Under the pieces are notes generated by a model. It searched no databases. It saw nothing but the letters and a program-made list of their open reading frames with translations, and had not been told where the DNA came from. A stretch of 64,000 nt of DNA, from positions 53,281 through 117,280 of the forward strand of contig DBPR01000029.1 of assembly GCA_002305635.1 (NCBI GenBank), read 5' to 3'. Of this stretch, positions 54,147 through 57,908 are shown in pieces. The translations under genes were made by a program, and so were the position numbers. Position 1 is the stretch's first letter. The number at the start of each line of letters is the position of its first letter. Source of the stretch: Anaerolineaceae bacterium UBA1415. GTDB lineage: Bacteria > Chloroflexota > Anaerolineae > Anaerolineales > Anaerolineaceae.

Positions 54147-54155
54147 TGCTATAAT
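54147..54155 (+). promoter_or_regulatory. Extended -10 promoter candidate for the ChlI-like gene
   Basis: TGCTATAAT lies 24 nt upstream of the ATG, with AAGGAAG as RBS. Confidence 0.4.
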
Positions 54156-54178
54156 TTGCCTTTGCAAAGGAAGCGACT

Positions 54179-55309
54179 ATGAATCATAAAGTAATTTTTC
54201 CCTTCACCGCCATTGTTGGGCAGGAGCGCATGATGCGCGCCCTCATCCTCAACGCGGTTGACCCGCGCATCGGCGGCGTCCTCATCCGCGGCGAACGCGG
54301 CACTGCCAAATCCACCGCCGCCCGCGCCCTGGCAGCCCTCCTGCCCGCCATCGAGGTCGTCACAGACTGCCGTTTCAACTGCGACCCCGCCAAACCGACC
54401 ACCTGGTGTACCGAATGTCAGGAGCGTTTTGTCGGCGGCGAAGACCCTTTGCCCCACGAAAGCAAAACCACCCCCTTCGTCAACCTGCCCGTTTCCGCCA
54501 CCGAAGACCGTGTCGTCGGCACCCTCGATATCGAACGCGCCATCCAGAAAGGCGAGCGCCATTTTGAGCCCGGCGTGCTGGCAAGCGCCAACCGCGGCTT
54601 GCTCTACATCGACGAGGTCAACCTGCTCGACGATCACGTCGTCGATATCCTGCTCGACTCCGCCGCTATGGGCACCAACGTCGTCGAACGCGAAGGCATC
54701 TCCTTCAGCCACCCCGCCCGCTTCATCCTCGTTGGCACGATGAACCCCGAAGAGGGCGACCTGCGCCCGCAGCTGCTCGACCGATTCGCCTTTTCCGTTG
54801 AAATTCACGGCATCCTGGATAAAGCCCAGCGCGTCGAGATCATGCGCCGCAACATCGCCTTTGAAAGCGACCCCGAAGCCTTCCGCCAGGCATTTTTGCC
54901 CCAGGAGCTTGAGCTTTCCGACAGAATCGCCGCCGCCCAAAAACTGGTCGAAGACGTTTCCTACACCCAGCGCGACCTGCTGATCATCGCCGAGCTGACC
55001 TCCTCGATGGATGTCGATGGGCACCGCTCCGACCTGGTCATCCTCAAAGCCGCCCGCGCCCAGGCAGCCTTTGAGGGGCGCGACCGCATCACCCCGCACG
55101 ATATCGCCATGGCTGCCGAACTGGCGCTGCCCCACCGCGTCAAGGCTGGTCCCTTCCGCAAGAGCGAGAATGGCATCGAGCACCTCAACGCCAAACTGGC
55201 AGACCTGAAGATGCAGACCACGCTCTCTCCTTCTGAGGACGACCGCGACCAGGAAGTTGAGCAAAACCAGGACGACGATAAAAAAAAAGTGACCCCGTCC
55301 CTGACTTAG
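54179..55309 (+). CDS. ChlI/BchI-family AAA+ ATPase (chelatase I-subunit-like)
   Basis: FPFTAIVGQERMMRALILNAVDPRIGGVLIRGERGTAKST and LLYIDEVNLLDDH (Walker B). It has a Cys-rich insert CRFNCDP...CTEC and an acidic C-terminal end. Confidence 0.85.
   Translation: MNHKVIFPFTAIVGQERMMRALILNAVDPRIGGVLIRGERGTAKSTAARALAALLPAIEVVTDCRFNCDPAKPTTWCTECQERFVGGEDPLPHESKTTPFVNLPVSATEDRVVGTLDIERAIQKGERHFEPGVLASANRGLLYIDEVNLLDDHVVDILLDSAAMGTNVVEREGISFSHPARFILVGTMNPEEGDLRPQLLDRFAFSVEIHGILDKAQRVEIMRRNIAFESDPEAFRQAFLPQELELSDRIAAAQKLVEDVSYTQRDLLIIAELTSSMDVDGHRSDLVILKAARAQAAFEGRDRITPHDIAMAAELALPHRVKAGPFRKSENGIEHLNAKLADLKMQTTLSPSEDDRDQEVEQNQDDDKKKVTPSLT
55280..55288 (+). other. A9 homopolymer linking the ChlI-like frame to the VWA frame
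   Basis: GAT AAA AAA AAA GTG in the ATPase frame. The -1 frame has TAA at 55279-55281, then stays open from 55282 straight into the VWA ORF. Confidence 0.9.
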
Positions 55310-55347
55310 ACAACAAAGACAACGACTTTGATCCTGAGATCCCGATC

Positions 55348-56310
55348 GTGGGCGAGTCGCAGCAGGACGTATTCGTCCAGCTCAACCCGAACTGGTGGGA
55401 CGGCGGCAAGGTGGTCAAGCCAGGCGAGACCTTTGAGCCGCGCCAGCTCGACACCCCGCTCGACGAAATGGTCCGCAAACAGGGCGGCAGACGTTCCCAG
55501 ACGATGTCCAGGACCAAACGCGGGCGCTACATCATGGCGCGCCCAGCCCCGCGCGACCGCAGCGACGTGGCTTTTGACGCCACACTGCGCGCCGCCGCGC
55601 CCTATCAGCGCCGCCGCAAAGCCCTGCGCGAGGAGCGCAAGGTCGCTTTTGCCATCCGTCCCGACGATTTTCAGAAAAAAGTGCGCGTGCGCAAGACCGC
55701 CAACCTGATCCTCTTTTTGGTTGATGGCTCCTGGTCGATGGCGGTCGCCGAGCGCATGCAGGCGACCAAGGCGGCGATCCTGTCGCTGCTGACCGACGCC
55801 TACCAGCGTCGCGATCGGGTCGGCCTGGTCGTCTTCCAGAAAGACCGCGCCACCCTGGTCCTGGCGCCGACCAATTCGGTCCTGCTGGCGCAGCGCGCGC
55901 TGGCGAGCATCCCGGTCGGCGGCAAGACGCCTCTCTCGGCTGGGCTGGAAATGGCATGGGAGGTCATCGCGCGTGAGAAGATCCTGCACCCGGATGTGCA
56001 GCCCCTGCTGATCGTCTTGACCGACGGCGCCGGCAACGTACCCCTCGTGCCCGGCAGACCTGTGGCGGAGGAGATCAAAGAGCTGGCGGGCATGTTCGCC
56101 AACGAGAAGATCCACAGCGTTGTGATCAACATGGAGCAGAAGGTCTTCGACAGTGGTCTGGCGCAGGGTCTGGCGGAAGATATGGGCGCGGTTTGTTATA
56201 CCGTTGATGATCTGAGGGGCGACACGCTTTACAAGACTGTCCAGAAAGAGATCCTCGCCCCCTCCGTCCCAACCTACCGCGAATTGGGCTACAGCTCGGC
56301 CGGGTTGTAG
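55348..56310 (+). CDS. von Willebrand factor A domain protein (ChlD C-terminal-like)
   Basis: MIDAS motif LVDGSWSM, ...VLTDGAGN. The GTG start has no obvious SD, and the frame is open 22 codons further upstream to 55282. Confidence 0.8.
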   Translation: MGESQQDVFVQLNPNWWDGGKVVKPGETFEPRQLDTPLDEMVRKQGGRRSQTMSRTKRGRYIMARPAPRDRSDVAFDATLRAAAPYQRRRKALREERKVAFAIRPDDFQKKVRVRKTANLILFLVDGSWSMAVAERMQATKAAILSLLTDAYQRRDRVGLVVFQKDRATLVLAPTNSVLLAQRALASIPVGGKTPLSAGLEMAWEVIAREKILHPDVQPLLIVLTDGAGNVPLVPGRPVAEEIKELAGMFANEKIHSVVINMEQKVFDSGLAQGLAEDMGAVCYTVDDLRGDTLYKTVQKEILAPSVPTYRELGYSSAGL

Positions 56311-56378: not shown

Positions 56379-57908
56379 ATGACAAGATCTGACAGCAAAA
56401 ACAGTCCCTGGTTTGCCATTCTGGCGCTTCTTTTCAGCCTGATCGTAAAACTTCCGATCGCGCCAAATTTTTATCCATATCCTGGGCGGGATTCAGGGGT
56501 TTTTGCCTATATTGGCTGGCGCATCCTCGAGGGCGAGCTGCCCTATGTCAATGTATGGGATCACAAGCCGCCCCTCGTTTTCTATATCAACGCGCTTGGT
56601 CTGAAAATGACCAACCTCTCCTTCTGGGGTGTCTGGATCATAGGAGTGATCTCGCTGGCCATCGCGGCATATTTCAGCCTGAAGCTGCTCTCAAGACTTT
56701 ACAAACCAAGCATTGCTGTCGCTGTTACCGTGGTTTGGTTGGCGTGTCTGCCGATCCTCTACGGGATCGGCAATTTGACCACCGAATACACCCTCCCACT
56801 TCAGTTTGCCAGCCTGTACGCTGCCTATCTGTGGCTGAGTGATGTTAAGAGACCCTTTTGGAAGTTCTTCCTGATCGGGGTTCTGGGCGGGATGGGGTTC
56901 ATGACCAAACAATCGAGCATTGGCGTTTGGGTCGCGATCGGCATGGCACTGGTGGCGCTGTTCTTCCATAAACCCGCGCGCAAAGACACTACGAAAAAAA
57001 TCCTTGGCATGGTCGCCGGGGTTTTCTTTTTCTGCGCATTGGTGGTTCTTTATTTTTACCTTGAAGATGGACTTAAGGCGTTTTTGAATCAGGCTTTCGC
57101 TTATAACTTTAAATATATCAGCCGTAGTAACGTGAGTGTTGTGCGACGGCTTATGAATCTGATCGACATGCGGGAAATGAAAACCATAACCGTATTTCAT
57201 CTTGGCGTAGTAGGAGGGTTTGCAGCATTGGCGCGCGTGTTCGGCAATAAAAAGGGAAAGGCTTTTGCGCCTGAGACCTTGTTCTATGGCCTGGTTGTGT
57301 TCGATCTTGTCCTGGAAGTGCTGTTAACGCACCTGCCCGATAACACCTATAAACACTATTACATGACCATGCTGCCATCTTTATCGATATTAACTGGCTT
57401 CCTGGCGTCAAGTTTGATCGATTCTCTGAACCATGATCTTGCAGGCAACAGAAAATGGTTGGAAAAGGCGTTTCTGTGCATGATGGCAGCTTTTGCCTGT
57501 ATTCCATTGTTATGGAAATGGTATGACAGTTTGCATGGTGTTACTCCAACCGTTAATGAAGGTGTGATCGAATTTGTTCAGTCCGAAACTGAACCGGAGG
57601 ATACGGTCTTGATCTGGGGTGCAGAAACGATGATAAATTATTACACCCAACGTGAGGCGCCAACCCGATACGTTTATCAGTATCCATTAATTCATGGCGA
57701 TTACGTAAACAAAGAGATGATCCTTGAGTTTCTAAATGACATTCAGGGAAAAGAACCCAAGTTTATTATCGACTCCAACAGACATGATATGCCCTTTATG
57801 ACCTTCCCGTTCAGCAATGAAGATATTGAGGAAGGGATCAACTGGATCACTGAAGAATATGAGCTGGTTGAGGATATCGAGGGTTGGATCGTTTATCAGA
57901 AGAAGTAG
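56379..57908 (+). CDS. GT-C fold glycosyltransferase (ArnT/PMT-like), paralog of 38244-39779
   Basis: Shares DSGVFAYIG, VWDHKPPL, GNLTTEYTLPLQF, TVLIWGAET and RYVYQYPL blocks with the other copy. Confidence 0.65.
   Translation: MTRSDSKNSPWFAILALLFSLIVKLPIAPNFYPYPGRDSGVFAYIGWRILEGELPYVNVWDHKPPLVFYINALGLKMTNLSFWGVWIIGVISLAIAAYFSLKLLSRLYKPSIAVAVTVVWLACLPILYGIGNLTTEYTLPLQFASLYAAYLWLSDVKRPFWKFFLIGVLGGMGFMTKQSSIGVWVAIGMALVALFFHKPARKDTTKKILGMVAGVFFFCALVVLYFYLEDGLKAFLNQAFAYNFKYISRSNVSVVRRLMNLIDMREMKTITVFHLGVVGGFAALARVFGNKKGKAFAPETLFYGLVVFDLVLEVLLTHLPDNTYKHYYMTMLPSLSILTGFLASSLIDSLNHDLAGNRKWLEKAFLCMMAAFACIPLLWKWYDSLHGVTPTVNEGVIEFVQSETEPEDTVLIWGAETMINYYTQREAPTRYVYQYPLIHGDYVNKEMILEFLNDIQGKEPKFIIDSNRHDMPFMTFPFSNEDIEEGINWITEEYELVEDIEGWIVYQKK

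Follow-up and report, generated by a model that had tools for sequence, protein, structure and literature searches.

Does a ChlI-like AAA+ ATPase frame that ends shortly after a run of nine adenines (A9), with a VWA-domain frame continuing in the -1 register, represent two neighbouring genes, one broken gene, or a single gene that is read in two ways? This question is raised by positions 54179-56310 of a 64,000-nt stretch of DNA from Anaerolineaceae bacterium UBA1415 (assembly GCA_002305635.1, contig DBPR01000029.1, positions 53,281 to 117,280 of the forward strand; hereafter the window, in whose own numbering all positions are given). An earlier reading of the sequence alone (the sequence-only reading) had suggested either a broken chlD-like gene or programmed recoding, by which one locus could yield both I-like and D-like subunits. 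We conclude, with a probability of roughly 0.9, that the region forms one frameshifted gene of the chlD type (fs-chlD), from which two proteins are made. As far as sequence comparison can tell, the suggestion of programmed recoding is supported by the A-run and -1 relation found at 94 of 100 orthologous junctions, by ratios of nonsynonymous to synonymous change (dN/dS) of 0.04-0.19, and by the lack of conservation of the GTG codon assigned as the start of the VWA open reading frame (ORF).

The junction and the two encoded halves

Rereading of the letters placed the uninterrupted A9 run at 55280-55288, between T55279 on its 5' side and G55289 on its 3' side, exactly where the sequence-only reading had put it. 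The ATPase frame, which opens at ATG 54179, passes through the run as ...GAC GAC GAT AAA AAA AAA GTG ACC CCG TCC CTG ACT TAG, so that its product ends in ...DDDKKKVTPSLT* at the stop codon TAG 55307-55309. The -1 frame is closed by a TAA at 55279-55281; from 55282 it is open (KKSDPVPDLDNKDNDFDPEIPIVGESQQ...) through the acidic linker and into the VWA region as far as the stop codon at 56308-56310, which likewise agrees with what had been claimed. The two ORFs thus overlap from 55282 to 55306. A conceptual fusion across the run has 710 aa and a mass of 78.8 kDa, and the zero-frame product has 41.7 kDa (first estimated at ~78 and ~41 kDa); the estimated length of ~715 aa has to be lowered to 710 aa. 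By conceptual translation, the predicted junction peptide of the fusion is ...DDDKKKSDPVPDLDNK / ...QNQDDDKKKSDPVPDLDNK.

Domain searches assigned Pfam Mg_chelatase and AAA_lid_2 to the ATPase half, and VWA_2 and VWA to the other. NCBIfam TIGR02442 ('putative cobaltochelatase', 641 positions), which describes a fused ChlI/ChlD-type subunit partnering CobN, is matched at positions 1-350 by the ATPase half and at positions 384-641 by the VWA half, and the conceptual fusion aligns with positions 1-641 of 641 in one stretch (772.8 bits, E = 2.7e-232). Because the halves cover successive parts of this model and the fusion covers all of it, the two ORFs are halves of one chlD-type gene lying in two frames, and the AAA+/acidic-linker/VWA build that had been recognized as that of a chelatase D-type subunit is borne out. 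At the structural level, residues 3-333 of the ATPase match the solved Synechocystis-type ChlI 8osf (E = 6e-106), and the VWA half matches the integrin-I domain of BchD, 2x31 (E = 2e-17). The metal ion-dependent adhesion site (MIDAS) motif of the VWA half is intact, its invariant residues being kept in the alignment. The ATPase also seems catalytically equipped, with a predicted Walker A motif GERGTAKS (54290-54313, residues 38-45), a predicted Walker B motif LLYIDE, and the catalytic Lys, Ser and DE all in place. The Walker A Lys is preceded by Ala where Gly is usual, as it is in 88 of 96 Anaerolineales orthologues; the other eight have GERGTGKS.

We assigned neither of the two obvious chelatase identities. 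The fusion falls 6.6 bits short of the curated cut-off of TIGR02442 (779.45 bits) and no CobN was found, so that the gene shares full-length model coverage with the cobaltochelatase subunits and differs from them in being frameshifted rather than fused and in scoring below the cut-off. Likewise, the ATPase half reaches 413.2 bits against TIGR02030 (equivalog cut-off 466.95) and the fusion reaches 439.7 bits against TIGR02031 (equivalog cut-off 499.55). The likeness to the Mg-chelatase subunits ChlI/BchI and ChlD/BchD (8osf, 6l8d, 1g8p and 2x31) consists of the ATPase match, the VWA match and the intact MIDAS; the differences are the scores under both cut-offs, the fact that neither ChlH nor a tetrapyrrole pathway was found, and the derivation of both subunits from one gene.

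Conservation of the run and selection on both halves

We used the conceptual fusion as a query in the genomes of 40 relatives and analysed every junction. The two halves lie in different frames in every one of the 24 congeneric genomes and in 6 that belong to the order but to other families. Of these 30 junction genomes, 29 (among them 23 of the 24 congeners) have a -1 relation, each with at least nine As in the overlap; the exception within the genus (G005) has A11 and a +1 relation. All 24 congeners were matched by the query, and the junction was readable in 23 of them. Another 80 loci, all of them from Anaerolineales, came from an independent retrieval that covered 185,579 species genomes. 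Taken over 100 distinct junctions of this order, 94 have a run of A7 to A10 in the ORF overlap and a -1 relation (67 with A9, 16 with A10, 10 with A7 and one with A8), one such A9 junction being that of the isolate Leptolinea sp. HRD-7, whose genome is complete. Four further junctions with A10 or A11 have a +1 relation, and two, also with A10 or A11, are fused in frame. Where the sequence-only reading had called for a comparison of orthologues, these therefore carry a conserved A-run at the junction (94/100) rather than forming cleanly separate genes with good ribosome-binding sites and no homopolymer. Of 76 loci, 75 have the run within the overlap of the two ORFs; the zero-frame stop comes 0-1 codons after it in 54 of 94.

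The minority of variants in run length, or with an indel nearby, and with a changed frame relation was found at L036/L012, L061, L071, L087, L050 and L091. They may be assembly errors (three of the six are nanopore metagenome-assembled genomes, MAGs) or real variation tolerated by slippage. A locus of a different kind, L110 (CAVVEQ010000006.1, about 2440-2475), has no A-run; it reads ACC CCC CCA AAA GTG TAA, with an in-phase C_CCA_AAA heptamer, a stop one codon later and the same -1 relation.

The nucleotide before the run is also constrained. In all 35 distinct loci whose run begins at codon position 1, the wobble base just before it was T, and this held across six codons for five amino acids (GAT, TCT, GGT, GCT, AGT and ACT). 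The A9 loci in phase 2 have T likewise, with GTA in seven of seven. Synonymous sites being otherwise saturated, the invariant T before the run points to a constraint at the nucleotide level.

Saturation was evident from pairs of genus members, among which the proportion of synonymous differences (pS) was 0.58-0.75, and dN/dS was 0.04-0.19 over both halves (0.07-0.19 for the ATPase half and 0.04-0.13 for the VWA part). Both halves are thus under strong purifying selection. Against this background, the three synonymous AAA/AAG positions of the run never change. Runs of A9 are not rare in themselves, with 3 occurrences in the window against 3.9 expected; nevertheless, the run at 55280-55288 is the only one in the window that lies inside a long ORF. 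The 465 long ORFs of the genome contain 31 Lys-Lys-Lys triplets, not one of them written as A9, with AAA accounting for 61% of Lys codons. In view of the saturated synonymous change and of these 0/31 spellings, the run has withstood drift as well as a general avoidance of A9. Moreover, the 1.65-Mb assembly contains 148 long homopolymers, of which only that at 55280-55288 joins two long ORFs in different frames, and the assembly is therefore not riddled with homopolymer errors.

Probable recoding, its rivals and the machine that might slip

Recoding at the A9 run is very probable on these grounds. In the mechanism that we infer for this organism, from slippage and its efficiency to the slipping machine and the complex formed, standard decoding would stop at TAG 55307 and give the 376-aa ChlI-like AAA+ ATPase as a 'small subunit'. 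A part of expression events would shift by -1 at A9, through tandem slippage of Lys-tRNAs on A_AAA_AAA, through addition of one A by RNA polymerase (an A10 mRNA), or through both. The shifted product of 710 aa would then carry the same ATPase followed by the acidic linker and the VWA/MIDAS part, as a 'medium, ChlD-type subunit', and by analogy with ChlI/ChlD the two products may assemble into a mixed AAA+ motor.

Two rivals dispense with recoding altogether. The two ORFs might be ordinary adjacent genes, with translational coupling or re-initiation starting the VWA protein at GTG 55348 and the A-run being no more than Lys-Lys-Lys codons. ORF callers indeed give a 320-aa ORF from this GTG (a VWA-only product of 35.5 kDa, from ...VGESQQ), separate ChlI and ChlD genes occur in many organisms, and some internal initiation was seen beside frameshifting in certain constructs (Antonov et al., 2013; PMC3711429). 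However, among 34 loci with the motif the codon at this position is GTT in 13, GTC in 11, GTA in 6 and GTG in only 4, so that 30 of 34 relatives have another Val codon, and the sequence upstream of it (CCTGAGATCCCGATC) contains no purine-rich Shine-Dalgarno (SD) element, as the sequence-only reading had remarked. The conserved part of the -1-frame peptide starts at the run: across the genus the linker starts with KK[ST]D, keeps its acidic, Pro-containing character and leads into a conserved ...P[IV]VGE.QQ, all in the -1 frame. The position of the run within the overlap in all but one of 76 loci and its persistence despite saturated synonymous change and genome-wide A9 avoidance also speak against two genes, and a lone VWA protein would miss the AAA+ domain of TIGR02442/ChlD proteins. 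Because the GTG is not conserved, lacks an SD element and lies downstream of the point where -1-frame conservation starts, independent initiation there is at best a minor, genome-specific extra, and a pair of ordinary genes is an improbable account of the locus. Even less credible is a damaged or miscalled gene, in which the true sequence would be A10 (a fused chlD) or the locus a decaying pseudogene. The source is a MAG (80.7% complete, 31 contigs), homopolymers are error-prone, and a few relatives do have A10 or A11 in other frame relations, two of them fused. Yet dozens of genomes that were assembled independently, from Illumina as well as long reads, repeat A9 with a -1 relation, as does one complete isolate genome; both halves show the low dN/dS given above, the zero-frame stop sits at or next to the run in more than half of the loci, and no other homopolymer-linked frameshift was found in the assembly. 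We therefore reject the broken chlD-like gene that had been offered as the alternative.

Given recoding, there is the further issue of which machine shifts. RNA polymerase might be the major route, slipping on a 9-bp rA:dT hybrid to produce A9, A10 and other mRNAs that are each decoded normally, and we regard this as a serious possibility with somewhat less than even odds. In its favour, 85 of the 94 -1 junctions have runs of at least nine, where a ribosomal heptamer needs seven; A9 runs occur in each of the three codon phases (30, 30 and 7 loci); no downstream structure is conserved; and genomes whose A10 or A11 run leaves the halves in a +1 or in-frame relation would still obtain both products from a ladder of transcript lengths. 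In addition, longer runs gave more shifted product from homologous poly-A cassettes in E. coli reporters (63% for A11, 40% for A9 and 10% for A7; PMC3711429). On the other side, every A9 holds an in-phase heptamer, so that the use of phases does not discriminate, and an in-phase A_AAA_AAA is present in all ten A7 loci (two or three independent lineages) and in the A8 locus. Since these A7-only lineages and L110, with its C_CCA_AAA, keep a strictly in-phase heptamer, which is a ribosomal signature, the ribosome can probably do the job in this family; the zero-frame stop 0-1 codons behind the run in 54 of 94 loci also favours a ribosomal shift.

Some observations weigh against recoding as proposed. 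Six of the 100 junctions have a +1 or in-frame relation, which a pure -1 ribosomal model cannot house unless they are assembly errors. No stimulatory structure was detected downstream of the run, either by folding of the window sequence (z = -0.44), by folding of 30 relatives with shuffled controls (z from -2.0 to +1.3, none significant), or by RNAalifold on 23 sequences of the genus (0 pairs). Finally, some VWA-only product may be made from the GTG in this particular genome. An upstream SD-like stimulator was judged uninformative, the high purine content of that stretch following simply from its Asp and Glu codons.

The locus is an instance of the published fs-chlD recoding, a family reported for this clade (Antonov, 2013; Antonov, 2020; Kuznetsov, 2022). 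Antonov et al. (2013, NAR) described a 'magnesium chelatase' gene cluster with a -1 frameshift at poly-A, with members in Pseudomonas, Burkholderia, Delftia, Herpetosiphon, Methanocaldococcus and Methanococcus (PMC3711429), and the A_AAA_AAR sequence in these genes was reviewed as being under purifying selection by Atkins et al. (2016; PMC5009743). Production of the small and medium subunits from one gene was proposed by Antonov (2020, Mol Biol Evol 37:2268), as cited in PMC9227772. Kuznetsov, Milenkin and Antonov (2022) reported fs-chlD in Anaerolinea, Ornatilinea, Longilinea and Levilinea, and described Brevefilum fermentans as a 'stage 1' genotype, with fs-chlD but neither a large subunit nor a pathway for chlorophyll or B12 (PMC9227772). 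The present locus has two overlapping frames of one chlD-type protein, a slippery site in the overlap, and conservation of both the site and the -1 relation. It shares with the family the ChlI-like AAA+/linker/VWA gene, the poly-A or A_AAA_AAR site in the linker, the putative small and medium subunits from one gene, the clade and the 'stage 1' genotype. It differs in its host, another and uncultured genus of Anaerolineaceae; in that porphobilinogen synthase was not found in any of 25 genomes of that genus; and in that no downstream structure was detectable or conserved in any of the three folding analyses, although such a structure is said usually to accompany the fs-chlD slippery site without being obligatory (PMC9227772). 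The two ORFs should accordingly be merged in annotation into one recoded gene with two products, and recorded neither as a ChlI gene with a start-less VWA gene nor as a pseudogene. The mechanism is already documented, so that this locus alone teaches little that is new; the small additions made here are that T invariably precedes phase-0 runs and that a downstream structure is lacking.

A parallel is found in dnaX, where E. coli uses a -1 ribosomal frameshift at A_AAA_AAG and Thermus thermophilus uses transcriptional slippage at A9. As with tau and gamma, one gene with a poly-A site would supply two AAA+ subunits of one complex, with the ATPase in both forms. The shift in dnaX truncates, the zero frame encoding the long form, whereas here it would extend the product. 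Moreover, the E. coli site depends on an SD-like element upstream and a hairpin downstream, neither of which is evident here, and the gene families are unrelated save for the AAA+ fold.

Gene content, possible role and surroundings

Gene content was counted in the genome of the window together with 24 congeners (25 genomes, 67-97% complete). Neither CobN/ChlH (PF02514) nor porphobilinogen synthase/ALAD (PF00490) was found in any of the 25, CbiC (PF02570) was found in one, and no second or separate chlI was found in this genome or its congeners. The genus apparently makes no tetrapyrroles, and it falls in the same class as the 'stage 1' genotype of Brevefilum fermentans. As CobN/ChlH was not found in this genome or in any of the 24 congeners, a role in cobaltochelation is unsupported. 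Purifying selection on the gene in 25 genomes that lack a detectable porphobilinogen synthase, CobN/ChlH and second chlI leads us to suggest, tentatively and as a rather doubtful proposal, that the recoded pair might be not a tetrapyrrole chelatase motor but a self-contained AAA+/VWA machine for remodelling or metal insertion with another client, its subunit ratio being set by slippage at A9 that needs no RNA structure and occurs mostly on the part of RNA polymerase, with the invariant T as part of the signal. These points bear on two questions raised by Kuznetsov et al. (2022), namely the task of the ChlI/ChlD motor in anaerobes without a large subunit and the choice between ribosome and RNA polymerase at poly-A; for the former, the absence of genes for tetrapyrrole synthesis is here extended to a whole genus.

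Features of the locus are collected in Table 1. A consensus scan, which missed the extended -10 element listed there, gave no full -35/-10 pair and nothing above the expectation from shuffled sequences; a terminator scan found no terminator between the two frames, and Rfam had no match in 55100-55500.

Table 1. Positions of sequence features at the fs-chlD locus (window numbering)
Feature	Position	Strand	Basis
Candidate extended -10 element TGCTATAAT, perfect, 23 nt upstream of the ATG, without a recognisable -35	54147..54155	+	Sequence only; tentative
Shine-Dalgarno-like AAGGAAG, 5 nt before the ATG	54167..54173	+	Sequence
Zero-frame ORF, predicted short product (376 aa, 41.7 kDa), ChlI-type AAA+ ATPase; ends 6 codons past the A-run	54179..55309	+	ORF list, Pfam, NCBIfam, motifs
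TAA of the -1 frame, closing that frame directly 5' of the putative slip site	55279..55281	+	Sequence; T55279 is the wobble base of the pre-run codon
Probable A9 recoding site, AAA AAA AAA in the ATPase frame, with in-phase heptamer A_AAA_AAA at 55282-55288	55280..55288	+	Sequence, conservation
Acidic, Pro-containing linker SDPVPDLDNKDNDFDPEIPI, reached only via a -1 shift or an A10 transcript	55288..55347	+	
GTG used as VWA ORF start by ORF callers; probably an internal Val codon of the conserved VGE motif	55348..55350	+	Codon comparison, no SD
Remaining -1-frame part of the predicted long product: conserved WWDGG region and VWA/integrin-I domain with MIDAS DGSWS...T...D	55351..56310	+	Pfam, TIGR02442, BchD match, alignment

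The neighbours of the gene are not conserved across the order and give no clue to its function. No cluster of flanking ORFs is shared by more than 26 of 76 loci, and those ORFs that can be identified are housekeeping genes, namely ribosomal protein S1 and an M42 peptidase. Synteny is poor even inside the genus. A role of the pair in a defence system was considered and rejected, as it is a core gene of the whole order whatever island adjoins it; the AT-rich defence island that lies upstream in the window is not beside the gene in the closest relative examined (G016) or in G018 and G007. In G016 (locus L114), the downstream genes are kept from the aminotransferase gene onward and everything upstream of chlD differs, and the GT-C/PMT_2 glycosyltransferase gene that directly follows chlD in the window (56379-57908) is missing there.

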